In this document: in pieces, positions 49,235-64,000 of the stretch | How the letters are laid out: the number at the start of each line of letters is the position of its first letter | How positions within the stretch are numbered: position 1 is the stretch's first letter | Source: Firmicutes bacterium ADurb.Bin193 | GTDB taxonomy: Bacteria > Bacillota > Clostridia > Monoglobales > Firm-18 | DNA length: 64,000 nt | Reading direction: 5' to 3' | Assembly: GCA_002070105.1 (NCBI GenBank) | Contig: MWCQ01000003.1 | Location: 143,101 to 207,100 of the forward strand | Translations under genes and position numbers: made by a program | The notes under the pieces: generated by a model | Database searches by the model: none | The model's input: only the letters and a program-made list of their open reading frames with translations | Told to the model about the DNA's origin: nothing

Positions 49235-49651
49235 TCATAAATCCTTCGTCAGATGAAATGAAAAGCTTGTTATATTCTCTTTTTCAAAATGCACATCCAC
49301 TCCGGCCTCTCTTAATTTCCGAATTGTTGTTAAAAGAAAAATAGTGTTTCTGGCAAAACGGGAAATTGACTTTGTAATAATCAAATCTATTTCGCCGTTA
49401 TATGCCTTCTTAAGCATTTCATTAAGTCCGGGGCGGCTTTCGCTCAAACCTGACACACCGGTATCCGAATATACACCGCAAAACTCATAATTTGAATTTC
49501 TTAATATGTACCGGGTGTAATATTCTATTTGATTTTCCAAAGAGTTTATTTGCAAATCGTGTTTTGTGGATACCCTGACATAGGCGCAAACCCTCTTTTT
49601 CCGCCACGGAAGTTTATTATTTGCTGTTACTTGGACATTTCTTTTTTGCAT
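49235..49651 (-). pseudogene. large serine recombinase, N-terminal catalytic fragment only
   Basis: 138 aa. Contains VCAYVRVSTKHDLQINSLENQ (catalytic Ser) and ITKSISRFARNT. It diverges and stops after FEKENITS; the recombinase and zinc-ribbon domains are missing. Confidence 0.8.
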
Positions 49652-50288
49652 GACTTTTTACCTCGCAATCTATATTCCGCATAAGCTCTGTGCCATCCCG
49701 AAATATGAACAGTACCTTATCTTCGGAAATCACCTTCACAACATTTATAACTGCCTGCCACACCATGTCATCAAATTGGTCGAGCGGGTTTTGGTGTTTT
49801 TGCAGTTCCTTTAAAAACCCTGTAATCTGCAGCCTCTTGGCCGCACATTTGTTTATTTTTGAAATTACCTGTTCCTGCTGCTGTTGCAGCTTCTCATGGC
49901 GTTTTACATATTCATTATATTTTTCATCATAATCCTTTTTATCGATTATAGTCTGTGCATTGGCTGAAATAAGCCTTTCTATGAGGACATTGATCTCTTC
50001 GCATTGTTTGTCGAGTTCTTCCAGTTGCATCACATAGGCGCTGTCATCGGTTATGGCGTCTAGTATAAGGTTGTAGTTTTCGATAATCTCGTCTTTATTG
50101 TCTACGATGCTGTTGAAGGCTTCAACAAACGCCTTTTTGATTGCGTTTTCTTTTAAGGTCGGAGTTGTGCAATATTTTCTTTTCGTAAATTTATTGTTGC
50201 AGTGCCATACAAACGTTTCATACTTGCTGCCTGCATGCCACACCTTCCTTCCGTAAAAACCACCACACCCTCTTGAAACCGCGATTTC
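49617..50288 (-). pseudogene. large serine recombinase, C-terminal fragment only
   Basis: The frame is open from 50288 (..AVSRGCGGFYGRKVWHAGSKYETFVWHCNNKF). It encodes a zinc-ribbon, a coiled coil and a DUF4368-like tail (FDDMVWQAVINVVKV). The catalytic domain is absent. It overlaps the next recombinase start, as in tandem recombinase sets. Confidence 0.75.
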
Positions 50289-50484
50289 TCACGCGAAGCC
50301 CCGCGCCCGATCTGGGGTGAAAGATGGTAGAAATTTAGCCCCCCTACCCCTAAACTTGCAAAAAATCTCTAAAACTTATCACTTCTTTGAATTTCGTGAG
50401 ATTTTTTGCATATATTTTAAGCCGTTTGCGGCATTGTTTTCAAATTGAGATATATACCCTTAGAAAAAAGGTGAACTATTAAAT

Positions 50485-51174
50485 TTATCTATCTGTCAAA
50501 CGAACAATCTGACAATTGACCATTACCCTGTCGAGTAGTGTCTGGCAAAGGTGCTTGTCCTCTACTGCATCTATCCACGCAGATATTTCACGATTGGTAA
50601 TAAAAATTATACTTCTGGTTTCATTCAGAAATGAAATCGCTCGATAAAATGATTGCAGCTCTGCTCTGGTAGGTTCAACATAGAATACATCATCGATAAT
50701 AATTAAGTCACATTCTTTCATATAAGAAAAAGTTGTCTCTGCTTTGGTGTACGTATCTTTTTCTTCTGCTACGGATATAAATGTTTCAAAGGGAACATAG
50801 TAGGTTTTATATCCATTGTTAATAGCCCTCTCTCCAAGCTGAACCGCAAGGCTTGTTTTGCCTGTCCCGCATTTACCCAGCAAGATTATGTTTTGTTCCT
50901 CGTCAACCCACGTTAATTGGTATAGCTGTTTTATCTGCCATTTCAAACCTTTGTTTAAATTGGACTCATCAAATACTTTGTTTGGAAGCTTGCTTGCCTT
51001 TCTCATCTTTATATGTTTTTGTCTGACTCGTAGCTCCAGTTCTTTTTCTAAGACCATCTTAAGATAATCGAGATTGGATAATCTCTCATCATTTAAATCT
51101 ATGTGTCCCTTCGCAACATTCCATAGATTCAGCCTTTGAGCCAGCTCTCGGATTTCTGTTATATCAGCCATCAA
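50485..51174 (-). CDS. istB: IS21-family helper ATPase IstB
   Basis: 229 aa. Walker A LLGKCGTGKTS and Walker B LIIIDDV. Confidence 0.92.
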   Translation of the reverse strand: MMADITEIRELAQRLNLWNVAKGHIDLNDERLSNLDYLKMVLEKELELRVRQKHIKMRKASKLPNKVFDESNLNKGLKWQIKQLYQLTWVDEEQNIILLGKCGTGKTSLAVQLGERAINNGYKTYYVPFETFISVAEEKDTYTKAETTFSYMKECDLIIIDDVFYVEPTRAELQSFYRAISFLNETRSIIFITNREISAWIDAVEDKHLCQTLLDRVMVNCQIVRLTDR

Positions 51175-52630
51175 TTTCCCTCCTTATTTCTTTACATCGT
51201 GTTAAGTGGTTAAAGTACTGTTGTGTCGGCAAAAACTTTCTCGCTATGTGCTCGCCATGCTTATACATAAGATAAGCCAAAAGCTCATATGCATTACAGC
51301 GATTACTTTTTATGCAGTATTGTATCCCTTCCAGCAATTGCTCCATGGTGTAAAACTTCGTCATACGATTTAAGCGAATACAATGGGTATTAAAATATTT
51401 TGGTCGTTCCTGTTCCATCCGTTGAATAAATTCCAATGCAATTTCATGTCCTGCAAAATATTGTTTTATAAGAGCAAGCGAAACTCTGTTCTCTATATTA
51501 CTTTCTTCAGCCTTAAACAATTGGCCGGTTTCTTCTGTTGCGGGATACTTTGCCAATAATTCATTGGTTTCCGTATCATAGAACAGGATAATCTCGCCAT
51601 CATCTTCAATACGAATACGTTTATGTGCATCCATAATTCCTACATCTACCTGATACCGGTTCCCTTTATACCTAATAACTCCGCTTGTATCAAAAGATGC
51701 TACAGTGCTTGATACCTCAAAGTATGGCTTAACATGAATTAAATGCTTTTGTTCTTCCATAAACATTTCTCGGGGTATTTTCTTCGTAATGGTATGTATT
51801 CTACCGTTGCCTTCTCTATCCAACCATGCAAGAGCGGCACTGTTAAGGCTGTCAATTCCGGTATAGATTCTGCCTTCCAGAAAACTTTGCTTCACATATC
51901 CGACAACTTCTTCTATCTTCCCTTTGCTTTGGGGATCCCTCGGCCTGCATAGCGAAACGCTGTAACCTACGCGCCTCACATATTCTTCAAATTCCGGCAC
52001 AAATATGATATTTCCTAAATTTTCGCTGACGATATATACCCTATCAAGATCATATAGGATTGTCTGCGGTCTCCCTCCGAAGTATTTAAAAGCATAATTG
52101 TGGGCTTTGATAGCCTTTTTTGTTGTGAATGGATCAGGCGAAAAGTATACAAATTTCATTCTGCTGTAACTTAAAACCATACAGAAGAAATATACCCGTA
52201 CAATCCGTCCATACATATCTTTAAGTTTATATTGTCCGAAGTCCGCCTGTGCCTCATATCCCGGAGGCAACACTTCTCTTGGAGAGATTGTCCTCGTACG
52301 CTGATACCCATGCTGTTCTCTTAAGGCTTTCATGTAGCGGTAGAAGGTAGCACGTTTAACTTGCAAATCCGGAAAAGCTTCCGTTAATTTTAGATAGATG
52401 TTAGTATCTCGAATTTGTGGGCATAACTTCAATTGCTCCAATATGTACTGGCGGTAATTATCCATATGATGCCTTTCCTGCTCAGCCGCTTTTGCGTAAT
52501 CTTCTTTGCTCATGCTCCAGTACTTACAAACAGAACTGTAGGTGATTCCCAACACCTTTGAAGTTTTTGTACGTGTTAAACCAAGCTCTTTATATTCCTG
52601 AATTTTTTGGTATTGCTCAATACCGATCAT
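51164..52630 (-). CDS. istA: IS21-family transposase IstA
   Basis: 488 aa with an N-terminal HTH and a DDE integrase core (QADFG..., ILYDLDRV). Confidence 0.9.
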   Translation of the reverse strand: MIGIEQYQKIQEYKELGLTRTKTSKVLGITYSSVCKYWSMSKEDYAKAAEQERHHMDNYRQYILEQLKLCPQIRDTNIYLKLTEAFPDLQVKRATFYRYMKALREQHGYQRTRTISPREVLPPGYEAQADFGQYKLKDMYGRIVRVYFFCMVLSYSRMKFVYFSPDPFTTKKAIKAHNYAFKYFGGRPQTILYDLDRVYIVSENLGNIIFVPEFEEYVRRVGYSVSLCRPRDPQSKGKIEEVVGYVKQSFLEGRIYTGIDSLNSAALAWLDREGNGRIHTITKKIPREMFMEEQKHLIHVKPYFEVSSTVASFDTSGVIRYKGNRYQVDVGIMDAHKRIRIEDDGEIILFYDTETNELLAKYPATEETGQLFKAEESNIENRVSLALIKQYFAGHEIALEFIQRMEQERPKYFNTHCIRLNRMTKFYTMEQLLEGIQYCIKSNRCNAYELLAYLMYKHGEHIARKFLPTQQYFNHLTRCKEIRREIDG

Positions 52631-52831
52631 TTTGTTTCCCCCTTTATATTATTCAATTATGATTATTTGTATCAGCAATCATAGGCATCACCTCCTTAAA
52701 ACTCAAATTAATTTTTTATATAATAACACATAAACTTGCCTAACTAGAATAGTAATGGTAATAAATTTGAGCAGCAAATGTTACATAAGTGCTGTATATC
52801 CCGAAAAACTATCAAAAGGGAGCGAATTTAA

Positions 52832-52928
52832 AAAGGCACTATTGAAAACCACCACATTGGTAGATTCAATAATGCCTTTGGGATAGTACATCTGTTTCAA
52901 AACTTATCACTTTCATCAGCGTGAGCAG
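52832..52928 (+). pseudogene. inverted, silent hsdS 3'-end remnant
   Basis: The plus strand encodes ..IENHHIGRFNN.. followed by (K)LITFHQREQ*. Compare EQKQIGDFFKYIDNLITLHQREQ in the half-hsdS. It is broken by frameshifts and truncated upstream beside the IS21. Confidence 0.5.
52903..52927. repeat. inverted repeat arm 1 (hsdS conserved region)
   Basis: CTTATCACTTTCATCAGCGTGAGCA equals the reverse complement of 53908-53932 (CTTATCACCCTTCATCAGCGTGAGCA), except that CC is replaced by T. Confidence 0.85.
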
Positions 52929-52947
52929 TGAGATAGATGTGATAAGA

Positions 52948-53880
52948 TTAAGATAAGCCTGATAAAGACCTCATAACAAGATCAACGTCTTGATTCTCAA
53001 GTTCCTGAATAATATGTATATATGTCTTTTGTGTTGTCGTAATGCTCGCGTGTCCCAAGCGTCTTGCTACACTTGCAATCGAGACACCAGCAAACAACAA
53101 AAGTGATGCATGTGTATGTCGCAAACCATGTACTGAAATAACTGGTATTTTCGCTTTCTTACAATGTCTTTCAAGGATATCGTTAACCGTTGAGTTATAA
53201 ACCTCGCGATTATTTTTTATAAAGATAGGATTATCCGCAGGAAGATTTTTTACAAGTTCTGAAAACTGAATAACCGTCTGCCAATCCATTTGGATTTTTC
53301 TTACAGATGATTTATTCTTGGTAGGCTGAAACCCTCCATTACCTTTATAATCCCAAGTTTTACTTATCGACAAAGACTGATGTGCAAAATCAAAATCCCG
53401 CGGTGTAAGTGCCAATGCTTCGGAAAACCTCATTCCGGTTTTTGCAATTAACAATATAAACCAGTCCCAATTAATCTCATCTTTTAAGTTTAACGATTTA
53501 ATTAGGGTATGAAGTTCGTACTGATTCAAGTATTTTGTCTTTTTGGGACAAGGTTGCTTTCCCTTAATGATTGCCTTTCTTGTTGGATCCCTTTCCACTA
53601 ATCCATCATCTACCGCGTCCTGAATCGCACCTTTGAGTTGATGATGAAAATCCATGGTCGTCTGTCGTTCGTGATAACGTGCGTAATCATTTAGCATTTG
53701 CTGATAAGTGATTCTGTTGAGTTCGCATAATTTCAGGTTAGGAATGAGTTTCTCGAGCCACGAATGTGTCATTAAATACTTATCCATTGTCACTTTACGA
53801 ACTGCCCCCTCCTTATACACCTTAATCCATTGAGCATAATAATCACTAAATAAATCGTCTGGTTTTGTTTTGCTTAGCAT
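52948..53880 (-). CDS. tyrosine site-specific recombinase (phage-integrase family)
   Basis: 310 aa. Contains GMRFSEALAL (Arg), HGLRHTHASLLL (HxxR) and QKTYIH (Tyr). The gene is bracketed by the hsdS inverted repeats. Confidence 0.9.
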   Translation of the reverse strand: MLSKTKPDDLFSDYYAQWIKVYKEGAVRKVTMDKYLMTHSWLEKLIPNLKLCELNRITYQQMLNDYARYHERQTTMDFHHQLKGAIQDAVDDGLVERDPTRKAIIKGKQPCPKKTKYLNQYELHTLIKSLNLKDEINWDWFILLIAKTGMRFSEALALTPRDFDFAHQSLSISKTWDYKGNGGFQPTKNKSSVRKIQMDWQTVIQFSELVKNLPADNPIFIKNNREVYNSTVNDILERHCKKAKIPVISVHGLRHTHASLLLFAGVSIASVARRLGHASITTTQKTYIHIIQELENQDVDLVMRSLSGLS

Positions 53881-54451
53881 TTTTAACCTCCTGTTTGATT
53901 ATTATTTGCTCACGCTGATGAAGGGTGATAAGATTGTCTATATATTTGAAGAAATCGCCAATTTGCTTCTGCTCCTGTGGATTACTCGGCGAGTAAACTT
54001 CAATCTGTGCTAAATCATTAGAGTTAATTGCGGGATAGCTTGTACCGGTACAATTATCCAAAACAACTTTCACGAATCCTTCGTTCTGAACAAGACAGAG
54101 TAAGAATCTTCCGTCTACGAGAGGACGCATTTGTGCGTACCCCGTTGAAAAAACATAGTGTTTATCAGGCTTTTCAAATAAATAATTGTTTTTCTGATAT
54201 GGCCTAACCGTCTGATAAAAAAGATCTCCTGTCTGAGCTAAGCGCTGCGCTCTTGATGGTGCTGTCGCTTTCGCTTCAGTTCGGTGCGAAAGCATCTCTG
54301 TGCCAACTACTGACTCCAGATCGACATACTCAAATACATCCGGCAGCTCAGCTTTTGGATTGAATAATGCCAGCTCATTTAGCTTACGCTGTTCCCAAGC
54401 AAGAGAAAAGAGCCAAGGTTTTCCTTGACTCCCTTGAAACCGATGTTTCAT
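53846..54451 (-). CDS. hsdS: half-size HsdS (single TRD)
   Basis: 201 aa. N-terminal conserved region (AWEQRKLNEL), one TRD, then EQKQIGDFFKYIDNLITLHQRE, and it ends there. The start abuts the hsdR stop and the 3' end overlaps the integrase start. Confidence 0.8.
   Translation of the reverse strand: MKHRFQGSQGKPWLFSLAWEQRKLNELALFNPKAELPDVFEYVDLESVVGTEMLSHRTEAKATAPSRAQRLAQTGDLFYQTVRPYQKNNYLFEKPDKHYVFSTGYAQMRPLVDGRFLLCLVQNEGFVKVVLDNCTGTSYPAINSNDLAQIEVYSPSNPQEQKQIGDFFKYIDNLITLHQREQIIIKQEVKNAKQNKTRRFI
53908..53932. repeat. inverted repeat arm 2 (inside the half-hsdS)
   Basis: TGCTCACGCTGATGAAGGGTGATAAG, partner of 52903-52927. Confidence 0.85.
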
Positions 54452-54452
54452 G

Positions 54453-57400
54453 TCATTGTTGATCTAGTATATCTATCTCATAACCACCATTTATTATAAA
54501 ATTTCTAAGCAACTCATCAACTTTGTTGTTAACTCTGAACATGGGAATAGAATTGCCCTCAACAGCTTCAAAATATGCTTTTGCCTTTGTCTTATCAACA
54601 GTTGCTTTCAGATTGTCAAGTCGTCCGTATTCATTGATAGTGGCATCATCCACTTTAAGGTCCATCATTTTTCTTAGCTGCTGCTCATCCAGACCAAGCG
54701 CTACAGAGAGCTTATGGATTTGATCATCCTTTGCCCGTTGCATATATTCGTTGATATAATCTCTCAATGTCTTGCCGGATTCAACACTAACATCACCCGT
54801 CTGAAGATCATGTAGGAAAATGTTTGCATATTTTTGTTCTTCCTGTGTCAATGTGGCAAAAGTTTTATGTAACTCATCTCTTGCACTTTTGACATCTTCA
54901 TCACTACCGTTTGTTAGCGCCTTTTTATACTTTTCAAAGCGGGAATTCATGTAATCGGCATCGATTTCTTCTGTGTTGATCGTGGTAAGATACCCCGCCA
55001 AGTCGTAAGGCGAATCTTCTTTCGAACCGCCCGTCCCTTCAGAAAACAGCTCTTTGTAACGCAAAGCAAGGATTTTATATTCTTTCTCATCAAGAAGCAA
55101 AACAATTTTCTTAACTTCTCCCGTTGCCTTATCAGCGAAAGAATATTCTAATTTATCCCACACAAATCCTTGGACCTTGGCAGCTTCAAGATATTCATTG
55201 AACTGCTTAAACAGCTTTGCAAACTGTTTTCGTTCCGGTATATTCTCCGGCAACTTTTCAAAGTTAAATATTCTTGACTGCTCAAACAGATTTTTTATTT
55301 GTACGAATATCGCATTCATATTTTCAAGATTTTTGTCAAGCTTTATTGCAAACATTCCAAGCGGCTTATCCCCGGAATATAGTTTTACCGCTGCATCAAT
55401 ATTACGTTCCATTGTATATGGCGCACGATAATATTTGATAGTACCAAAAGGCTTATCCGGACCAAAGAGGCGATTTGTTCTGGAAAACGCCTGAATTATA
55501 TTTTCATAGCGTATTACCTTGTCAAGATACAAAACATTAATCCATTTGGAATCATATCCGGTAAGCATTTGATCTACAACAATCAATAGGTCAATCTTTT
55601 CTTCGGGCTTATTATCAATCCTTTCATAAGGCTTTTTGTGTGCCAGTCGAGCCTGAATATCCTTTTTCATTTTTCCGTATGTAGAAATTGTAAAGGTCTG
55701 CCCATAGAGCTTATTATAATCGGAAATGATCTCAAGTAAGGCGTCTTCTTTTTCAATGCCTGTGCCATTATTATCAATGCTCGGATCAAAAAGGGCAGTT
55801 ACTTTAAGATGAGGCGCCTCTTCCTTGAACCGCTTATAATACTGCACTGCTTCTGGAATGCTGGAAGTTGCGAACAAGCCGTGGAACTTATGATTATGAC
55901 TGATAACAATCCAGTTATCAATAATATCCCGAACTACCATTTTTTGATGTTCTTCAGTGCGATACTGCCCATTATCCAGAAGAAAATCTTCAATACCTTT
56001 AACATATGTTCCGTCAGTTTGATAGTAACCGGCCATTGGCACATCATTTATGTATTTATAATAAATTTTTTTCTTTTTAGGATCTTTGAAAACTTCATCT
56101 ACCGATGAAGCCTTTGCCATACCCAAGGCAACCGCCCGTCGCATATCACTTTCCTTAAAGGTCAGAACTTTATCCGGGTCAAAACCTAATACATTCTTGT
56201 CACGAATACCGTCAGCTATGCTGTAACGGTGCAACTCGTTACCAAAAACATCTGCGGTCGTGCAACCTTTTTTCTCATTTTCAATATGAATCGGCGTTCC
56301 GGTAAAGCCAAAAAACAGCGCTTTGGGGAAGGTTTGCTTTATTACGCCCATCATCTCCCCAAAAGTAGAGCGATGGCATTCGTCAACAATAAACACAATT
56401 CGTTTTTCACAAATTAAATCAAGATCGCTTTTTTTCAATTGTCCTTCAGTATCATTTTTGATATTACTCATTTTCTGAATTGAAGTAACTATCAAAGTGT
56501 TTGCAGGATCGTTGCTTTTCAGTTTTGCAATTAAAACAGCGGTGTCTTCAGTTTCCTGAATAGAATCTGTTTCATCCGCAAAACCACGATATTCATTTGC
56601 GCTTTGTGTGCCAAGCTCTATGCGGTCAATGAGAAACACCACTTTATCGGCATCCTTTGAGTTAGCAATAAGTTGAGCGGACTTGAAGGATGTCATAGTT
56701 TTGCCTGAACCTGTTGTATGCCAGACATAGCCGCCGAGCTGATTTCCACTTTCCCACTTGTGTTTGGCAACTGTATCGGAAATCTTGTTAGCTGCGTAAT
56801 ATTGGTACGAACGCATAACTTTTAAAACACCGTCAGAATTATCTGCAACGGTATAAAAACCGATGAGCTGATGAGCCATAGGAATGGACAATAATGTATA
56901 AGCAACCATCTTCCAGTCATTTATCGGTTCATTGTTAAAATCCGCCCAATGAAAATAAAAATCTGTGTTAAATTTGCCGTCCGGTCCGGGATTGGCAAAA
57001 TATAAAGCCTCTTCAGGATTCATGGCAACAAATACTTGCACCAGTGAAAACAACCCCGTAAACACACCTTCATGAGCATACTTTTCAATCTGATTATATG
57101 CCTGCGACACAGGGATACCACTTCTTTTCAGTTCCACATGTATAAGCGGCATTCCGTTAATCAGCAGCATAAAGTCGCCTCGTCTATCAGGCAGAATACT
57201 TGACTTGGCCGTAAATTTTGGTTGCCTTGCAATCTGATAACGGCTTTGTCCAGCGGCAATTTCCTGCCGGTCATAGATTTTTAAGCTGACCTCCTTGCCA
57301 AAATGGGCTTTATCGTCCGGATTGTCACGAATAATTGATACGGTTTTGCCGTTGATAAATCCATTGAGTTTTAGCGGAGTTTTAAGTACTTCAATCTGTG

Positions 57401-57608
57401 TAAGTATCTGCCGCATTTCTCCTTCTGTCAGTGGGTAATCATTCAGACGGTCAATGCTACGGTTGTTCTCAAAAAGAATATTGGCCCAGTTTTGCAATAA
57501 CTCTTTTTCAGTTTTGTATTCCAAAACCTCAGGCTCCCATCCGCAGGAATCCGTCAGCAATTTTATGAGCGCATCTTCAAATTCGGATTCTTTTGTAAAT
57601 GCCATCAT
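54453..57608 (-). CDS. hsdR: Type I restriction enzyme R subunit
   Basis: 1051 aa. N-terminal PD-(D/E)xK region (DFMLLINGMPLIHVELK) and SF2 helicase motifs (HTTGSGKTMTSF, FIVDECHRS, TGTPI, QAFSRTNR). Confidence 0.95.
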   Translation of the reverse strand: MMAFTKESEFEDALIKLLTDSCGWEPEVLEYKTEKELLQNWANILFENNRSIDRLNDYPLTEGEMRQILTQIEVLKTPLKLNGFINGKTVSIIRDNPDDKAHFGKEVSLKIYDRQEIAAGQSRYQIARQPKFTAKSSILPDRRGDFMLLINGMPLIHVELKRSGIPVSQAYNQIEKYAHEGVFTGLFSLVQVFVAMNPEEALYFANPGPDGKFNTDFYFHWADFNNEPINDWKMVAYTLLSIPMAHQLIGFYTVADNSDGVLKVMRSYQYYAANKISDTVAKHKWESGNQLGGYVWHTTGSGKTMTSFKSAQLIANSKDADKVVFLIDRIELGTQSANEYRGFADETDSIQETEDTAVLIAKLKSNDPANTLIVTSIQKMSNIKNDTEGQLKKSDLDLICEKRIVFIVDECHRSTFGEMMGVIKQTFPKALFFGFTGTPIHIENEKKGCTTADVFGNELHRYSIADGIRDKNVLGFDPDKVLTFKESDMRRAVALGMAKASSVDEVFKDPKKKKIYYKYINDVPMAGYYQTDGTYVKGIEDFLLDNGQYRTEEHQKMVVRDIIDNWIVISHNHKFHGLFATSSIPEAVQYYKRFKEEAPHLKVTALFDPSIDNNGTGIEKEDALLEIISDYNKLYGQTFTISTYGKMKKDIQARLAHKKPYERIDNKPEEKIDLLIVVDQMLTGYDSKWINVLYLDKVIRYENIIQAFSRTNRLFGPDKPFGTIKYYRAPYTMERNIDAAVKLYSGDKPLGMFAIKLDKNLENMNAIFVQIKNLFEQSRIFNFEKLPENIPERKQFAKLFKQFNEYLEAAKVQGFVWDKLEYSFADKATGEVKKIVLLLDEKEYKILALRYKELFSEGTGGSKEDSPYDLAGYLTTINTEEIDADYMNSRFEKYKKALTNGSDEDVKSARDELHKTFATLTQEEQKYANIFLHDLQTGDVSVESGKTLRDYINEYMQRAKDDQIHKLSVALGLDEQQLRKMMDLKVDDATINEYGRLDNLKATVDKTKAKAYFEAVEGNSIPMFRVNNKVDELLRNFIINGGYEIDILDQQ

Positions 57609-57617
57609 ACCGCTCCT

Positions 57618-58235
57618 TTACTTTTCGTCTCTGATATTTTCCGTTTTATAGACATTGTATCCCTCATAATGATAGCTTGCGTCAATGCCTTTAATATAGA
57701 CCTCGCGGTCATTGATTTTATCCGTCAAGGCGGCTTTCAAAAGCACCTTGATTTCTACATCTTTAATTGGGCTGCGCTCCATTGCAAGAAGATAATCTTC
57801 CTTCTCGACCTTGCTCCAGTCAATGACCATTTTGAGTTCTTTTTTTAGAATTGCATCCAGCCAAATACGAGTACTTCTGCCGTTACCCTCACGGAAGGGA
57901 TGGGCAATATTCATTTCGACATACTTCTCGATTATTTCATCGAAAGTGGATTGCGGCATTTTTTCAATGTTATCCAGTGCCGCCTTCAGATACATCACCG
58001 GCGCAAAGCGAAAATTGCCCTTTGCAATGTTCACATCACGTATTTTCCCGGCAAAATCATAAATTTCTTCAAACAAATACCTGTGGATCATCGCAAGTCC
58101 TTCAAAGGTTCCGACCGGGAAAGTGTCCAAAAGGCCGGTTTCAAAAAGTTCCAAAGCCTTTTTTTTGCTGATTTTTTCTTCCGCACGGGCAAGTTCGGCA
58201 GGATCCGTAATACCCAGTTTATTTTCTAATGCCAT
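57618..58235 (-). CDS. fic: Fic-domain protein (class III-like, C-terminal inhibitory motif)
   Basis: 205 aa. Canonical [12 protein letters not shown] motif. The C-terminal SYHYEG fits the autoinhibitory (S/T)xxxE(G/N) motif. The gene is wedged between hsdS (17 nt gap) and hsdR (9 nt gap). Confidence 0.9.
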
Positions 58236-58252: not shown

Positions 58253-59464
58253 TCAAACAAACATCTTTTCAAGACATGCTTTTTTAAAATTTTGCAACTT
58301 TTCCAACTTACGCTGATGAAGGGCGATAAGGTTGTCGAGGTTGCGGAAAAAGGTACCGATTTTAGTTTGTTCCTTCAAAGAAGGAACAAAAGTTTTTAAT
58401 TCAGAAAACTCTGTTTTATTTATTATCTGCATAGTTCCGGCTGCAGCTGAACTTTTCATTTTTTCAGACCATAATGCACTTTCTGAAAGTAAAAAATATG
58501 GAAAGTTTTCTTTTTCATTCGGTACTAATCCGTTAATCTGCTGGTTAAAACTGCCCGTAGTACCTAGCATCGTGTTCTTTCCTATACTGGCAATACTTGT
58601 TACTAAAACTGTATTTTGAGGAACAACGCGAGCAACTTTTTGCCCTTCTTCACTTAAACGTTTAGCAGTGTTAAAGGTAATATTCTCAGAAATATCCGTG
58701 GGTGTAACCCAAGGTATTCCATCGTCAGAATAGTATGCTTGAACCTGTGTTGATGGAGTTGAACCTGTAATAATTTCACCAAGTTCCCCCAACTTACGCT
58801 GTTCCCAAGCTTCAGTAAATCCCTTAAAACGAATTTTAGGGACATTGCTTCCGTTTTTTGGAAACATTTTTTCAAGACAAGATTTTTTGATGTTTTTTAA
58901 TTTGTCATACTTACGCTGATGAAGGGCGATAAGGTTGTCGAGGTTGCGGAAAAAGGTACCGATTTTAGTTTGTTCCTTCAAAGAAGGAACAAAAGTTTTT
59001 AATTCAGAAAACTCTGTTTTATTTATTATCTGCATAGTTCCGGCTGCAGCTGAACTTTTCATTTTTTCAGACCATAATGCACTTTCTGAAAGTAAAAAAT
59101 ATGGAAAGTTTTCTTTTTCATTCGGTACTAATCCGTTAATCTGCTGGTTAAAACTGCCCGTAGTACCTAGCATCGTGTTCTTTCCTATACTGGCAATACT
59201 TGTTACTAAAACTGTATTTTGAGGAACAACGCGAGCAACTTTTTGCCCTTCTTCACTTAAACGTTTAGCAGTGTTAAAGGTAATATTCTCAGAAATATCC
59301 GTGGGTGTAACCCAAGGTATTCCATCGTCAGAATAGTATGCTTGAACCTGTGTTGATGGAGTTGAACCTGTAATAATTTCACCAAGTTCCCCCAACTTAC
59401 GCTGTTCCCAAGCTTCAGTAAATCCGGCGAATCGAATAGCCGGTTTTCTCGCTGTTTCAGACAT
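58253..59464 (-). CDS. hsdS: Type I specificity subunit with two identical TRDs
   Basis: 403 aa. Residues of about 14-185 and 215-386 are identical. Conserved regions are FTEAWEQRKLGEL and NLDNLIALHQRK, each present twice. Confidence 0.93.
   Translation of the reverse strand: MSETARKPAIRFAGFTEAWEQRKLGELGEIITGSTPSTQVQAYYSDDGIPWVTPTDISENITFNTAKRLSEEGQKVARVVPQNTVLVTSIASIGKNTMLGTTGSFNQQINGLVPNEKENFPYFLLSESALWSEKMKSSAAAGTMQIINKTEFSELKTFVPSLKEQTKIGTFFRNLDNLIALHQRKYDKLKNIKKSCLEKMFPKNGSNVPKIRFKGFTEAWEQRKLGELGEIITGSTPSTQVQAYYSDDGIPWVTPTDISENITFNTAKRLSEEGQKVARVVPQNTVLVTSIASIGKNTMLGTTGSFNQQINGLVPNEKENFPYFLLSESALWSEKMKSSAAAGTMQIINKTEFSELKTFVPSLKEQTKIGTFFRNLDNLIALHQRKLEKLQNFKKACLEKMFV
58306..59425. repeat. 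517-bp perfect direct repeat, 603-bp period, inside hsdS
   Basis: On my read-through of the printed lines, 58306-58822 equals 59425-58909's interval 58909-59425 at every position. Independent support: track ORFs 58332-58619 and 58935-59222 give the same 95-aa peptide. Confidence 0.9.
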
Positions 59465-59466
59465 AC

Positions 59467-61428
59467 TTATTCACCTCCAAGAAGCTTTTTGAGCTCCGCA
59501 ATACCCTTCATGTCAAATTCATTGCCGGTTAATTCATCTAACATAGCACAAAGGGATGATTCCGTTTCGCGAATCTGTTCTTCCACCTCAAAGAATGTAG
59601 TCTCATACTTCTTTGCCAGCGCATTAAGCTTTAAAACAAATTCGTTCACAATTTTTTTAGGCAACTCAAAAAGACCTGAAAGAATAGGTGTAATCCATTT
59701 TAGTTTAAGCAACTCTTTTACCTGATTATCTGTCAGTTCTTCAATTGCCTTTTTGGTTTTCATTTGAAGCTCAGCCGCTTCTTCTTTCACCTTTTTCTTT
59801 AGAGTTTTTTCTTCTGTGTTTAAAGCATCATATTTTTTTAGTATCTCCAAAACTTCCGGCTCGACTTCATTTTCCTTGATTGCCTTTTTAACGGCAGCAG
59901 GAACAAACGCCGTTTTATCATCATTTACAAAATCCTTATCTTTTTCTTCTTCAGGCAATTCATCCAGCAGGGATTCATATTCAGAGGCAATTTCAGCAAG
60001 TCTGTTTTCGTTTGCTTTCTGCTGTGCAAGAGCATCGTGCAAGAACCTCTCCTGAACAAGTTCAAAAGGAATCACCCTGCCTACCCATCCGTCCTGCACT
60101 TCAATATCCTTGCCGTCCTTTTTCTTGACAATCATATTAGGATCGACCTTTTTGGTGGATTCAAATCCCTCCGTCTGGATTATTTCAAGATCAACGGCAA
60201 TGTTTAGCCATGCGTCATCCAGTATCTGATACGCTTCATATTTATCTACAAGGGGAATGCCATCAAGACTCTCAAAAATCTTTTCGGCAAGTTCATTTTC
60301 TTTCCTTGAAACGTTAATACTTTCCATTCCCGCAATCAATTCATTATACAGGAATTCCTCAAAGCCCTCGAAAGCAGTTTTAAATTTCTGCTCAAAGGAC
60401 TGAATGTCGGTATGCTCGATAACCGCATTTTTAATATCATCTGTATTAAAATGCCAATAAGCGGCAGAATCATCAGCAAAGAGTGCCTTTTTTAGGTTCG
60501 GAAACGCTGACCAGTATGCTGCCAGCTCATCCACTTCGCTTGCAGGAATACCACCGAACATAGAGGTATAAATATCCCAGCTTTCCGGCTTTTCGGAGGA
60601 ATCCACATAACGTGGAATATTGAGGTTATAATCATTCTTACGGATTTCATCGCGGGATACTACCCTTGAGAATTTCTCTACGGAAATGCGCTGTGTCACC
60701 ACATCCACAATCCGTTTTATATCGCAGGCTCGTAATTTGTTATTCTTACCTGCCTTTTCAAATCCTTTTGATGCGTCAATAATAAGTACATCGGTATTGC
60801 TGCGCTTCTGTTTAAGTACCATGATAATTGTAGGAATGCCCGTACCAAAAAAAATATTTGCAGGAAGGCCAATGATGGCATCAATCTTATTATTCTCAAT
60901 CAGGTTCTTGCGAATTTCACCTTCCTCACCGCCACGGAACAGAACGCCATGAGGTAATACAATCGTCATAATACCGTCAGGCTTGACATGATAGAGATCA
61001 TGAAGCAGAAATGCATAGTCTGCTTTGCCTTTTGGTGCAAGGCCATAGTCTTTATAACGAGGATCGGATTCCTTGTCGGAAGGATTCCAATGCTGAGAAT
61101 AGGGTGGATTTGAAACCACCGCATCAACATAAAGAGGGTTATATGTTCCAATAGGATCACTTTCTTCAAAGTAAGGCCAGTCATCCTCCAATGTATCTCC
61201 GTTACGGGTAACTATGTTATAATGGTTAATTCCTCGCATAATAAGATTCATACGAGTAAGGTTATAGGTGTTTTCCTTAAGCTCCTGTGCGTAGTATTTA
61301 ATTTTATCGCTGTTGCCCATATATTTTGCAACGCTTTTACCAATATTGATAAGTAATGAGCCGGAGCCGGAGGTCGGGTCTATAAAGACGCTGTCTTTGA
61401 TACAAACAGAAAAAGCCTTCTCTGGCAC
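59467..61428 (-). CDS. hsdM: Type I methyltransferase subunit, 5'-truncated (N-terminal domain and motif X missing)
   Basis: 653-aa ORF starting at GTG. Motif I (FIDPTSGSGSLL) sits at residue 15 and motif IV (NPPYSQHW) is present. A long helical C-terminal extension follows. The normal 150-200 aa N-terminal region is absent. Confidence 0.85.
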   Translation of the reverse strand: MPEKAFSVCIKDSVFIDPTSGSGSLLINIGKSVAKYMGNSDKIKYYAQELKENTYNLTRMNLIMRGINHYNIVTRNGDTLEDDWPYFEESDPIGTYNPLYVDAVVSNPPYSQHWNPSDKESDPRYKDYGLAPKGKADYAFLLHDLYHVKPDGIMTIVLPHGVLFRGGEEGEIRKNLIENNKIDAIIGLPANIFFGTGIPTIIMVLKQKRSNTDVLIIDASKGFEKAGKNNKLRACDIKRIVDVVTQRISVEKFSRVVSRDEIRKNDYNLNIPRYVDSSEKPESWDIYTSMFGGIPASEVDELAAYWSAFPNLKKALFADDSAAYWHFNTDDIKNAVIEHTDIQSFEQKFKTAFEGFEEFLYNELIAGMESINVSRKENELAEKIFESLDGIPLVDKYEAYQILDDAWLNIAVDLEIIQTEGFESTKKVDPNMIVKKKDGKDIEVQDGWVGRVIPFELVQERFLHDALAQQKANENRLAEIASEYESLLDELPEEEKDKDFVNDDKTAFVPAAVKKAIKENEVEPEVLEILKKYDALNTEEKTLKKKVKEEAAELQMKTKKAIEELTDNQVKELLKLKWITPILSGLFELPKKIVNEFVLKLNALAKKYETTFFEVEEQIRETESSLCAMLDELTGNEFDMKGIAELKKLLGGE

Positions 61429-61453
61429 ATAAGTGCTGAAAAAGGCTTGAAAT

Positions 61454-61510
61454 AAAGGGCTTTCGAGGTTCTGCTGTGTTCTACAGCAGAGCTTCGGAAG
61501 CCCTTTTTCT
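61454..61510. terminator. long hairpin terminator abutting the hsdM start
   Basis: AAAGGGCTTTCGAGGTTCTGCTGT-GTTC-TACAGCAGAGCTTCGGAAGCCCTTT followed by TTCTGTTT. T-rich on both strands. Confidence 0.7.
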
Positions 61511-61620
61511 GTTTATTCGATTGCCGCTGGCCGGTTCTGTGGTCTTCGGAACTTACCCCTCAAAACCGGCGGTCGGAGGAATAATTAAAAAGTGTGGAAT
61601 AATTAAAAGGTTCAATCAGC

Positions 61621-62463
61621 CTAAAGCAATTCCTTCAGCGTTTTTCCATTTGAATCCTTCCAGAGGGCATTACCGCTCAAAGATGCCCCGCCGACAAAAC
61701 CAGCTGCAGATGACGGACTTGAGAATAAAACGTCTGATATAAGAATGCCGTTTTTATCAATCTTGTCGGCGTACTTATTTCGATCTTTTATCGCTCTTTC
61801 AGGGCAACTCTTTGTAACAGTCGGATTAATTGCGCTTCCTTTGAAGACCACGAAACCTTCGCTGGTTCTTTTACCAGAAGCCTTTCCTTTTCCATACTCC
61901 AGATAAAGGACCGGCTCATCATTCTCTGCTTCCGGAGCAGGTGCAAAAGGCTCAAAAACTCTATGGCCAAGCGTTCCCATTACGATCTTTGCATAGTCAA
62001 TGAACTCTTCAAGTTCGCTTTCGGTTTCCTCTGTGATGTTTCCGGGATTTGGGTCATTTCCGTTTTTCACAGAATACCGTCCGGCCTGAACAGCCATATT
62101 GCAGAACCGATTTTCAAGGTAGCTTATCTCAGTCGGACCAAATGAATTATTCGTCGTTGTGAACATAATGGCTTCAGTCCAATAATCAATAGAGGTATGC
62201 GGTTCTTGGATTCGGAGCAGAAGGCCTTTTCCATTTTTACGCACTCCGGCCTGACCTATATACACAACAGCATTATCAGATTTATCGGTGCCGAACAGGA
62301 AGTAGACTCCGCTTTGTTTGAGAATATCTAAGTCCTTACATTTATCCAACGCAGTACGAGGAACCTTATATGCAATTCCGGTCCAGTTGGCAAGAGAACA
62401 CTTGATTCTTCCGCTCGGTTCGCCATCCATTAAAAAAAGCTTGATTGTTTTACTTCTCGGCAT
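61621..62463 (-). CDS. GIY-YIG nuclease domain plus DUF4357-like C-terminal domain protein
   Basis: The track ORF extends to 62532. ATG 62463 (MPRSKTIKLFLMDGEP) lies 6 nt after AGGAGG. GIY-YIG hallmarks are GVYFLFG, VVYIGQA and ISYLENRF. The C-terminal half (FVVFKGS...GASLSGNALWKD) resembles DUF4357, from memory. Confidence 0.7.
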   Translation of the reverse strand: MPRSKTIKLFLMDGEPSGRIKCSLANWTGIAYKVPRTALDKCKDLDILKQSGVYFLFGTDKSDNAVVYIGQAGVRKNGKGLLLRIQEPHTSIDYWTEAIMFTTTNNSFGPTEISYLENRFCNMAVQAGRYSVKNGNDPNPGNITEETESELEEFIDYAKIVMGTLGHRVFEPFAPAPEAENDEPVLYLEYGKGKASGKRTSEGFVVFKGSAINPTVTKSCPERAIKDRNKYADKIDKNGILISDVLFSSPSSAAGFVGGASLSGNALWKDSNGKTLKELL

Positions 62464-62510
62464 GCTATTCCTCCTACTTAATCCACAAACAAGTCCGGGA
62501 TTATTCTTAT

Positions 62511-63005
62511 TCACTTCGAGATGCGCTGCCATTTTTCTATAGAGCGCAATATTTCATCTTCATACTTGACTCGAAACACCGTTCTAAATGCACCGAGTGA
62601 ATACTGTATTTGTTGAGATAACGCATCTCGAGGGAAATCCTTTATGAGCACTTTTATGGATCGGCTGTGCTGAAGACACTCGTTTTGATCTGCGTTGTAT
62701 TCGTAATCTCCGGTAACTGTGGCAAGGACATACGTATGGCTTCCCTTTGAAGGGATTAGGACATAATCGCCAATTTGAATCTTCTGAACGAAATCGAGAA
62801 TCTGTCCAACCCAAGTTGCAACAGAAGTTCTATTATCTGTGCACTTCTCATTACCAACAGCAAGTCGGAGTTCTTCCTTTGTCTTTATGGCCTTAAAGTC
62901 ATAATGATATCCATCCCACGGAAGAAATACCCTCTGAGATTCCAGTATTGCATCGTAATATATTGAATTACGTCCAGCTCTGATTAACCACATCATATGC
63001 ATCAT
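62511..63005 (-). CDS. stand-alone domain protein resembling the N-terminal module of Mrr-type restriction proteins
   Basis: 164 aa (true start probably the 4th or 5th Met, MWLIRAGR). Pattern: MWLIRAG...GDYVLIPSKGSHTYVLATVTGDYEY...HSRSIKVL...RDALS...SLGAFRTVFRV. No nuclease motif is present and the ORF ends right after the module. Confidence 0.55.
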   Translation of the reverse strand: MMHMMWLIRAGRNSIYYDAILESQRVFLPWDGYHYDFKAIKTKEELRLAVGNEKCTDNRTSVATWVGQILDFVQKIQIGDYVLIPSKGSHTYVLATVTGDYEYNADQNECLQHSRSIKVLIKDFPRDALSQQIQYSLGAFRTVFRVKYEDEILRSIEKWQRISK

Positions 63006-63040: not shown

Positions 63041-64000
63041 CTAAAACAACGTTAGCTGTGTATAGCCGTATACTTTGCCGTCATCTATAGCAAAGTCCGA
63101 AATATACTCTTTGAATTCGCCAAGTTCCATTGTCCCATACTGTTCACACATTTCGCTTGCCTTCAAATAACAATCTAAAAGCGAAAAAGTACCAGTTTCT
63201 AAAATCTTGTTCATGGATTCAACGACGGCATTTTTCAGAAGTTTCGTCTTTTTCTTGTATCCATCCTTGATGATGTACATCCCTGCCTTCTTGTCATAAT
63301 CAAAAATGGAACTAATAATAGAATCCTTATCTGCAAGCAGCCGATAATCCATATTATTTTTGAGCCATGCGATGATAAATTCTCTATCAAGTATAGTTTT
63401 GGCGATTCTTCCTTCTCGTGAATTAGCGACAAAACACAGATGTGACAGCACAGGAGATAAATCCTTTGATACTTTGACCTCCGTGTTAAGAGTGTAGACA
63501 GAATACACGTCACTAATATAGCTGGAATTGATCGACATTTGCGCCTTTGAGGAAATAACAGCAGGTATTTGATAAAAGACGCTTTCACAGACAAACCCAT
63601 TGTTTTGAAGCGCAGCAATCAGAGCCGTCCAAGCCCTCATGTCGTTGTTATTGAATGTAATAAGAAGTTTACCCGTTTCTGTCAAATGCCGAGTAAAGCA
63701 ACACATATACTCATCAAGCTTTTGGGAATAATTCTCCCATGAGGCCGATTTGTCCATTCTGTCACTTACGCTGATATCTTCATCGGAACAAGGAATATCC
63801 TTGAGAAAGCTATTCCAAATATTCGAGAACTCTGTATATGGAACGCTATCCCCATAGGGAGGATCTAAAAAGATTAGATCCGCCTTAAGATCAGAGTATT
63901 CGTTGCGATTCAATAGCTCCAATGAATTCCCGTGAATGATTTTAGCTTCAGCATTGATAGGAGTTTGCGAGAGGGCTACTAAGGCCTTTTTAAACTTCGA
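63041..64000 (-). CDS. DNA (N6-adenine/N4-cytosine) methyltransferase, 5' end outside window
   Basis: The track starts it at a TTG, but my translation keeps the frame open to position 64000 (SKFKKALVALSQTPINAEAKIIHGNSLELLNRNEYSDLKADLIFLDPPYG). Motif IV DPPY is present. No GxG motif occurs in the 270 aa after it, so motif I should lie upstream, outside the window. Confidence 0.75.
   Translation of the reverse strand, partial: SKFKKALVALSQTPINAEAKIIHGNSLELLNRNEYSDLKADLIFLDPPYGDSVPYTEFSNIWNSFLKDIPCSDEDISVSDRMDKSASWENYSQKLDEYMCCFTRHLTETGKLLITFNNNDMRAWTALIAALQNNGFVCESVFYQIPAVISSKAQMSINSSYISDVYSVYTLNTEVKVSKDLSPVLSHLCFVANSREGRIAKTILDREFIIAWLKNNMDYRLLADKDSIISSIFDYDKKAGMYIIKDGYKKKTKLLKNAVVESMNKILETGTFSLLDCYLKASEMCEQYGTMELGEFKEYISDFAIDDGKVYGYTQLTLF

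Follow-up and report, generated by a model that had tools for sequence, protein, structure and literature searches.

Is a recombinase gene that lies between inverted fragments of hsdS, the specificity gene of a Type I restriction-modification (R-M) system, part of a working switch, or is it what such a switch leaves behind? The question is raised by a 64,000-nt stretch of DNA from Firmicutes bacterium ADurb.Bin193 (contig MWCQ01000003.1; hereafter the window), which contains a Type I R-M locus with all of its genes on the minus strand, including a tyrosine recombinase gene flanked by an inverted repeat. The original prediction for this DNA held that the repeat marks a phase-variable specificity switch whose silent cassette had been cut by an IS21 element. 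It was right in kind, as the locus holds a switch remnant, but it erred on the length of the remnant, on the role of IS21 and on where the main losses lie. In our reading, which we consider probable, this is a decayed phase-variable Type I specificity switch: the recombinase gene and two recombination sites (termed IR-A below) remain, while a cassette upstream of hsdM and the 5′ part of hsdM itself have been lost. Gene order, repeats, a hairpin, truncations, a comparative series of related loci and the match to experimentally mapped sites were all observed directly.

The inverted repeat around the integrase

The gene between the arms of the repeat (52948–53880, minus strand; 933 bp) is full length and encodes 310 amino acids (aa). 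Its product matches Pfam Phage_integrase (E=1.7e-22, profile positions 2–168 of 172) and also a SAM-like N-terminal domain. The translation contains GMRFSE, HGLRHTH and LGHASITTTQKTYIH, which supply the Arg...His-x-x-Arg...His...Tyr residues of PF00589, and relatives of the protein in the PDB are integrases. We refer to it as the integrase.

A repeat search of the window returned an exact 16-nt inverted pair (52912–52927 and 53907–53922). On reading the sequence, eight more nucleotides are seen to match exactly (52903–52910 and 53925–53932), beyond a T in arm 1 that stands against CC in arm 2, and BLAST of the region against the window pairs 52900–52927 with 53935–53907. The 25/26-nt inverted repeat with its CC-to-T change, as first described, is therefore real. 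Arm 1 (52903–52927, plus strand) reads CTTATCAC-T-TTCATCAGCGTGAGCA and is 1 nt shorter than arm 2 (53907–53932, minus strand), which carries ATCACCCTTCATCAGCGT. When the 16-mer TTCATCAGCGTGAGCA was sought in the 64-kb window with up to two mismatches, it was found in both arms, once in the central conserved region of hsdS, and nowhere else; shuffled sequences gave 0.03 matches. The repeat is far above chance. The sequence of each arm suggests an imperfect dyad, TTATCACCC / GCGTGAGCA, with TTCATCA as a putative 7-nt spacer.

Arm 2 also proved to be what had been proposed, namely the LITLHQRE-coding part of a half-length hsdS, and the two arms do bracket the integrase gene. Arm 2 sits in the codons for ...IDNLITLHQREQ, at the 3′ end of a half-hsdS cassette (53846–54451, minus strand), a 201-aa open reading frame (ORF) that matches Methylase_S and holds one target recognition domain (TRD). 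Throughout, IR-A denotes the site in the LITLHQR codons (here arm 2) and IR-B the site in the WEQRK codons (here 54383–54397); the cassette lies between the two. The tail of this ORF overlaps the start of the integrase gene, whose ATG is 27 nt from arm 2. Because a terminator-like hairpin of 13 pairs (54406–54435, minus strand) lies within the first 15 codons, right after the hsdR stop codon, the ORF start may be spurious and the cassette silent.

In Enterococcus faecalis, the inversion sites of the Efa4125I and EfaH25I systems have been mapped and the inversions verified by polymerase chain reaction and sequencing (PMC7672463). These sites are ATCACTCTTCATCAGCGTAAGTTAGAACAG (which begins ATCACTCTTCATCAGCGTAAG) and TGGGAACAGTGTAAG / GTGTAAGTTGGGGGA; the associated invertase gene, efiA, is 930 bp long, and EfiA belongs to clade 4 (PMC7672463). 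The sites of the window are identical to the published ones at 17/18 and 14/15 nt. This match of both the arm and the WEQRK repeat to mapped EfiA sites bears out the view that the architecture is that of an hsdS-shuffling recombinase locus, and it supports the assignment of the arms, on sequence grounds, as recombination sites of such a system.

Upstream of arm 1, the original prediction had placed a silent hsdS copy of ∼100 nt, recognized by an hsdS-like segment, IENHHIGRFNN. The plus-strand translation KGTIENHHIGRFNNAFGIVHLFQ is indeed present, and LITF and HQREQ-stop can be read only through a 1-nt frameshift. The likeness to hsdS, however, did not hold up. The best 20-nt match of the IGRFNN stretch to the QIGDFFK codons is 12/20, a score attained by 13% of shuffles, and tblastn with 18 intact cassettes from related loci as queries detected no hsdS similarity next to arm 1. 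The stretch is instead an intrinsic-terminator-like hairpin of the integrase gene (52827–52879, minus strand), with a 15-bp outer stem, a 6-bp inner stem and UUUUU. It combines a G+C-containing stem-loop, a U-run and a position directly after a gene: the segment 52879–52832 begins 69 nt past the integrase stop codon and folds with z = −3.8, with no shuffle folding equally well. What derives from hsdS is a stub of only ∼25 nt, followed by this hairpin.

Origin and age of the stub

No contigs matched the integrase, the half-hsdS or P0001 in exact-sequence look-ups, and homologues served instead as the route to related loci. At ∼80% identity or better, there are more than 8000 homologues of the integrase; full-length relatives are 73–93% identical and come from several phyla. 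A scan of species-representative genomes returned 80 loci (L011–L090) in many phyla. Their integrase identity of 72–83% across phyla, together with the many contigs among them that end at the integrase, points to wide horizontal spread of the gene and to assembly breaks at repeated hsdS sites. Hosts in this set include Firmicutes, Actinobacteria, a betaproteobacterium, Saccharibacteria, a Melainabacteria bin and Victivallaceae. Homologues 65–76% identical occur in Enterococcus raffinosus and E. cecorum. A 57% identical integrase of Ligilactobacillus salivarius (pLMP1046, NZ_CP007649, 5609–8506; L097) is found by genes for GbpC/Spa-domain adhesins and a YoeB/Phd pair, not by hsdS.

We located the arm motif in ∼100 related loci, drawn from species-representative genomes and metagenome contigs. 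Both arms lie within ∼150 nt of the integrase in 60 of these. In 18, an open inverted cassette of 150–240 codons starts at WEQRK and runs in frame into the downstream arm, which forms its LITLHQR end; the cassettes tested among these matched Pfam Methylase_S in every case (8/8). About 25 loci, the window included, have the stub only, and the remainder lack a downstream arm. Because an intact inverted cassette ends at the downstream arm in 18 loci, the proposal that this arm is the remnant of an inverted silent hsdS cassette is sound at the family level, as judged by this comparison; arm 1 would be the site-only stub of a cassette since lost. The same counts bear on the contrary idea that the repeat is a chance match, or a mere part of a terminator, with no relation to hsdS. 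Nucleotides 52900–52917 can in fact pair with 52932–52949 as a hairpin, as that idea would have it. Given an exact 16-nt match where 0.03 matches are expected, its conservation at the same place in 60 loci and its role as the in-frame end of a Methylase_S cassette in 18, we attach virtually no weight to this explanation.

The stub of the window has close counterparts. The same 1-nt-short form occurs in L001–L006 and L091–L093 (the L001 type), in L100 and in L101: against CACCC, the window has CAC-T-TTCATC, L101 has CAC-C- and the L001 type has CAC-G-. L001-type loci come from biogas and other metagenomes and encode integrases 92–93% identical to that of the window, and their BLAST homology to the window spans arm 2 to arm 1 exactly (53938 to 52903). 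L101 is 94.5% identical to the window in DNA. A homologous terminator hairpin follows the stub in L101 and in the L001-type loci, in L001 at the same place as in the window. IS21 is absent beside the stub in six L001-type contigs, and in L001–L004 unrelated genes come after the hairpin. Since the 1-nt deletion and the hairpin are common to the window, L101 and the L001 type, and since six L001-type contigs have no IS21 there, the comparison indicates that the stub is older than IS21 and that the partner cassette was lost long before IS21 arrived.

In L007–L010, a 91% identical integrase gene stands directly after hsdR, with no cassette and no downstream arm. The upstream site of these loci is degenerate and has the same short form, CAC-T-TTCAT, as the downstream stub of the window. 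They represent either a later stage of decay or a recombinant. Taken by their site content, the related loci can be ordered as a decay series that would lead from two cassettes, through one cassette plus a stub, to no sites.

The IS21 element

An IS21-family element is the next recognisable feature past arm 1. Its minimum extent is 50263–52706 (minus strand), with istA at 51164–52630 and istB at 50485–51174; as is typical of the family, istA (rve) and istB (IstB_IS21) stand in tandem. Proteins 95% and 85% identical to IstA occur in other contexts. Homology to two other copies of the element (L094 and L095) stops at 52706 and, on the far side, at 50263; a comparison of the end regions turned up neither terminal inverted repeats nor a target duplication of 4–8 bp, and the ends are placed by loss of homology only. 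In L094, a 90% identical copy, homology is lost only 76 nt upstream of istA. The IS21 region had no match in the plasmid collection. The native flank can be aligned with L101 to ∼52806, which places the end of IS21 between 52706 and ∼52805. The end therefore lies at least ∼100 nt from arm 1, and the terminator between them is intact.

According to the original prediction, a ∼100-nt inverted silent cassette survives here since IS21 cut the rest away. That account drew on the adjacency of istA/istB to the arm and on the plus-strand translation described above. The comparison with IS21-free relatives that the prediction itself proposed turned out otherwise, as the same 1-nt-deleted stub and hairpin are found in L001–L006, L091–L093 and L101, including L001-type contigs with no IS21 behind the stub. 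Moreover, the supposed cut is separated from the arm by 70 nt of terminator hairpin, in which the alignment with intact inverted cassettes, likewise proposed, revealed no hsdS similarity; the 12/20 nucleotide match is one that 13% of shuffles attain. IS21 does not abut the stub, and its far side adjoins a serine recombinase fragment, not hsdS. We find it very improbable that IS21 cut the cassette.

The fragment on the far side (49617–50270, minus strand) is the C-terminal part of a large serine recombinase, with zinc ribbon and coiled coil, cut at the end of IS21. The segment 49235–50270 holds two tandem serine recombinase fragments, the second being a separate 138-aa ORF with an N-terminal resolvase domain. 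These fragments are the remains of an integrative element beside the R-M locus; the fragment in the window is unrelated to the serine recombinase of L001. Judged by its junctions, IS21 is a later, unrelated insertion further out, one that cut the serine recombinase gene and not the hsdS stub.

Two short matches in this region were considered and rejected. A 14-nt match to arm 1, AAAACTTATCACTT at 50371–50384, was examined as a possible second stub; it lies within the right end of IS21, is not kept in L095 and is attributed to chance. A 12-nt match between the hairpin loop and 50256–50267, AAAACCACCACA, lies where the truncated serine recombinase encodes its zinc ribbon (CGGF) and was likewise put down to chance.

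State of the switch

In intact relatives, cassettes appear between IR-B and IR-A, inverted next to the integrase, upstream of hsdM, or both, and paired inversions at the two sites bring a cassette into the expressed hsdS. The downstream IR-A of the window stands without a cassette: behind it there are ∼25 nt, 1 nt short, and then the integrase terminator. The second source is gone as well. L001 and L008 carry an inverted cassette between IR-B and IR-A (L001 946–1566, L008 88–621), 8.7–9.5 kb from the integrase and upstream of a helix-turn-helix gene, a DUF4357 gene and hsdM; in the window this cassette is missing, together with the 5′ third of hsdM. The hsdM gene of the window (59467–61428, minus strand) is without its first 215 codons, as seen by both tblastn and Pfam. 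Of the 852-aa HsdM of L001 and L008, only residues 216–852 were matched by tblastn anywhere in the window; in Pfam, N6_Mtase is matched only from profile position 47 onwards, and HsdM_N is absent. The relatives used for this call are 85–88% identical. Because the DUF4357-like gene beyond hsdM (61621–62532, minus strand) is only ∼30% identical to its counterpart in L001/L008-type relatives, the left end of the locus (59467–61620) is, by this comparison, replaced. The losses of the upstream cassette and of the first 215 codons of hsdM matter more for disabling the switch than does IS21, and the restriction system is probably dead.

What could the integrase still do? A motif search found no other inverted copy of IR-A or IR-B within 64 kb. 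The integrase presumably acts on IR-A sites, and the only inversion that would be possible between well-matched sites is a flip of the 1.0-kb integrase segment. Such a flip would end the half-hsdS ORF at ...LITLHQREQ-stop, 20 residues earlier, and it would turn the integrase away from upstream transcription, because only 27 nt separate arm 2 from the ATG. The predicted flipped junctions are ATATATAGACAATCTTATCACCCTTCATCAGCGTGAGCAGTGAGATAGATGTGATAAGATTAAGA on the hsdS side and TCTGTTTCAAAACTTATCACTTTCATCAGCGTGAGCAAATAATAATCAAACAGGAGGTTAAAAATG on the terminator side. Were arm 1 to recombine with the hsdS sites, whose cores differ from it at two positions, hsdS would be truncated and hsdR inverted. 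As no TRD lies between inverted sites, specificity presumably cannot be switched by inversion. On these grounds, and with the upstream cassette and the 5′ end of hsdM lost, the earlier claim that the switch is disabled stands, with one relative (L100, below) weighing against it.

All 12 assembled contigs (nine of the L001 type, three of the window type) have the integrase segment in the same orientation. JGI metagenome contigs were scanned for the flipped junction and, separately, for the stub whether flipped or not; the two matches obtained were unrelated high-G+C sequences, and unflipped copies did not turn up either. Some short integrase contigs (∼1.0–1.3 kb) start at the upstream arm, which fits variable or repeated flanks and is no proof of inversion.

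Two observations suggest that sites have been used in this lineage, in the past or recently. The first comes from the full-length hsdS (58253–59464, minus strand; Methylase_S), in which TRD1 and TRD2 are the same cassette. They form exact 517-nt blocks (58909–59425 and 58306–58822), each between IR-B and IR-A; the block starts just before the WEQRK site and stops at the LHQRK site, and the outer conserved regions are ∼60–70% alike. Identical TRDs imply, by their sequence, a palindromic target and a recent site-bounded copy event. The second is L100 (Logan SRR22315504), which is 99.4% identical to the window and has the same IS21 junction. When its positions 1–61 are compared with 53880–53945 of the window, the outer flank of the upstream arm encodes ...LDNLIALHQR, not ...IDNLITLHQR, and the switch point falls inside the 13-nt core CCTTCATCAGCGT. 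Either a cassette was replaced here or direct sites recombined with the deletion of 4.4 kb.

Direct sites are plentiful. IR-A occurs in hsdS as ATCGCCCTTCATCAGCGT at 58913–58930 (central conserved region) and at 58310–58327 (distal conserved region), and IR-B, TGGGAACAGCGTAAG, stands at the 5′ end of each of the three TRD cassettes (59396–59410, 58793–58807 and 54383–54397). All hsdS sites are direct relative to arm 2, which brings the window total to three IR-A and three IR-B copies in direct orientation. Shuffling might then proceed by excision and reintegration between direct repeats, with the direct half-cassette still reaching the expressed hsdS, as is documented for the tvr locus of Streptococcus pneumoniae (PMC6265443). 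TRDs bounded exactly by IR-B and IR-A would suit this mechanism, and L100 could be a deletion between direct IR-A copies. However, identical TRDs can also come from gene conversion, the sites match the EfiA class and not tvr, and no phd-doc pair adjoins the recombinase. Furthermore, hsdR (54453–57608, minus strand; full length, 1051 aa, 82–83% nt identity to hsdR of L001, L007 and L008 over its whole length) stands between the direct repeats and would be removed by excision. We regard such a route as improbable.

The two arms co-vary within loci. In the inner 8 nt (the integrase side of TTCATCAGCG), an arm matches its own partner at 5.29/8 positions versus 3.85/8 for arms of other loci, and 0/10000 permutations were as high. 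The inner flank is TGAGCA in both arms of the window and TGAGTAA in both arms of L001; TAAGCC, TCAGCC and TGAGCCGTGG are among the flanks of other loci. The sites of hsdS differ from these, with TAAGT in the window and, in L001, TAAGCT at both the expressed hsdS and the inverted cassette that precedes hsdM. In L001 and L008 alike, the site flank of the upstream cassette matches the expressed hsdS, not the integrase arms. From these flanks, each locus seems to hold two separate site pairs, one formed by the integrase arms and the other by the expressed-hsdS sites.

These patterns invite the explanation that the integrase and its two inverted sites are a working module under selection, in which the stub is functional: it would flip its own gene, so that orientation turns recombinase expression on or off, and recombine with other IR-A copies. 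Cores and inner flanks of the arms co-vary within loci in dozens of lineages, stub-only loci included, and the flank common to the arm pair is distinct from that of hsdS. The outer part of the stub has diverged and the core has not; the integrase ORF is intact, with no room for a promoter of its own in the 27 nt between arm 2 and the ATG; and L100, a relative that already has IS21, shows a site-bounded exchange. On the other side, orientation is uniform in 9/9 L001-type and 3/3 window-type contigs, and the 1-nt deletion would put a putative outer binding element of the stub out of register. L007–L010, moreover, retain their integrase with decayed sites, which argues that the protein can persist without them. 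On balance, a module maintained by selection seems rather unlikely.

A broader version of this thought is speculative and, in our view, doubtful. The integrase and two inverted core sites could be a self-maintaining invertible module that outlives its hsdS cassettes, with the pair evolving in concert in dozens of lineages and with two classes of site per locus. Its orientation could govern recombinase expression, or it could act as an on/off switch by truncating hsdS and inverting hsdR; in the lineage of the window it was perhaps still active after the arrival of IS21, as L100 might indicate.

Several points weigh against the interpretation of the locus as a decayed switch. An inverted cassette could lie outside the 64-kb window, and the rest of the genome might complement the HsdM that is short at its N terminus. 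L100 may mean that site recombination continued after decay, which fits the term ‘disabled’ less well. One caveat on the evidence is that orientation was read from assembled contigs, and inversion at the locus, or its absence, can be no more than presumed from these. Another is that the locus was placed tentatively in the EfiA clade, by the identity of its sites, by the length of its integrase gene and by relatives found in Listeria, Enterococcus and Mycoplasma.

Neighbouring genes

A gene for a Fic-type adenylyltransferase (57618–58235, minus strand) lies between hsdS and hsdR, the same position as in L007 and L008. It fits the NmFic-type adenylyltransferase model, and hsdR stands between it and the integrase. 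Beyond the DUF4357-like gene, a 293-aa ORF (63041–63922, minus strand) has a DPPY methyltransferase motif and no NCBIfam match at E <= 1e-5; a 164-aa ORF beside it (62511–63005) is likewise without an NCBIfam match. The two could form a second modification system that adjoins the Type I genes.

Significance

For the single locus, little is at stake: it is a decaying copy of a well-described class in an anaerobic-digester Firmicute, and ‘locked, probably inactive’ would be a fitting annotation. The comparison with relatives is of more use, and further work might be worthwhile only on its decay series and its co-varying site pairs. In an integrase family that is 73–93% identical across several phyla, the cassettes are bounded by two sites that are very short and almost invariant; with the decay series, this provides a simple sequence rule for telling live from dead switches in metagenome bins. 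The separate co-variation of the integrase arms and the expressed-hsdS sites gives a testable idea of how site pairs are kept apart within a locus.

Comparison with known systems

The closest described systems are those with EfiA. They have near-identical sites, with ATCAC(T/C)CTTCATCAGCGT in the LHQR codons and TGGGAACAG(T/C)GTAAG in the WEQ(C/R)K codons, and a Type I R-M locus with a tyrosine recombinase gene of ∼930 bp beside hsdS. In E. faecalis, however, efiA lies between two full hsdS genes that face one another, the repeats are mid-gene and a TRD is swapped with each inversion. In the window, by contrast, the downstream partner is a 25-nt stub, the sites adjoin the integrase, no TRD lies between inverted sites, and hsdR and the Fic gene stand between the expressed hsdS and the integrase.

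The same IR-A/IR-B motifs are found in the hsdS-integrase-hsdS loci of Listeria monocytogenes and L. innocua. In the closed record NZ_CP095725 of L. innocua, the order is hsdS, integrase (61.6% identical), inverted hsdS, hsdM and hsdR, and IR-A and IR-B are both present as inverted pairs. TRD shuffling has been observed in LreRMII of Lactobacillus reuteri with lsrA, which has the same layout (PMC6122466). These loci are intact and have two full-length hsdS genes, whereas the window has one full hsdS, a direct and silent half-cassette and a stub.

The S. pneumoniae tvr locus (SpnIV, TvrR) resembles the window in its half-gene TRD cassettes, short midpoint-type repeats, internal recombinase and many direct repeats. 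It differs in the clade of the recombinase (TvrR, clade 2) and in repeat sequence, and its repeats, which flank tvrATR, are without exception direct. In the window, the integrase lies between inverted copies, and the Fic gene is not in a phd-doc pair beside the recombinase, which sets the locus apart from the tvr type. SpnIII of S. pneumoniae (ivr/cod, PsrA/CreX), with an expressed hsdS, a recombinase and silent inverted cassettes, follows the logic of the original prediction; its recombinase is of clade 1, with no significant similarity (PMC7672463), and its repeats differ (15, 85 and 333 bp). SsuCC20p of Streptococcus suis was dropped as a comparator, as its repeats differ (TAAATCATCATTTA).

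Epigenetic invertons have been defined as phase-variable Type I R-M systems with a locus-encoded invertase and hsdS between inverted repeats (PMC7672463). The window has the Type I R-M genes (a full hsdS, a half-hsdS, hsdR and a truncated hsdM) and an invertase homologue, the 310-aa Phage_integrase ORF. Its sole inverted pair encloses the integrase alone, with no hsdS or TRD in between, and there is no second hsdS frame for an inversion to keep, the stub being 1 nt short. By these comparisons, the locus is an ordinary decayed member of a well-described class.

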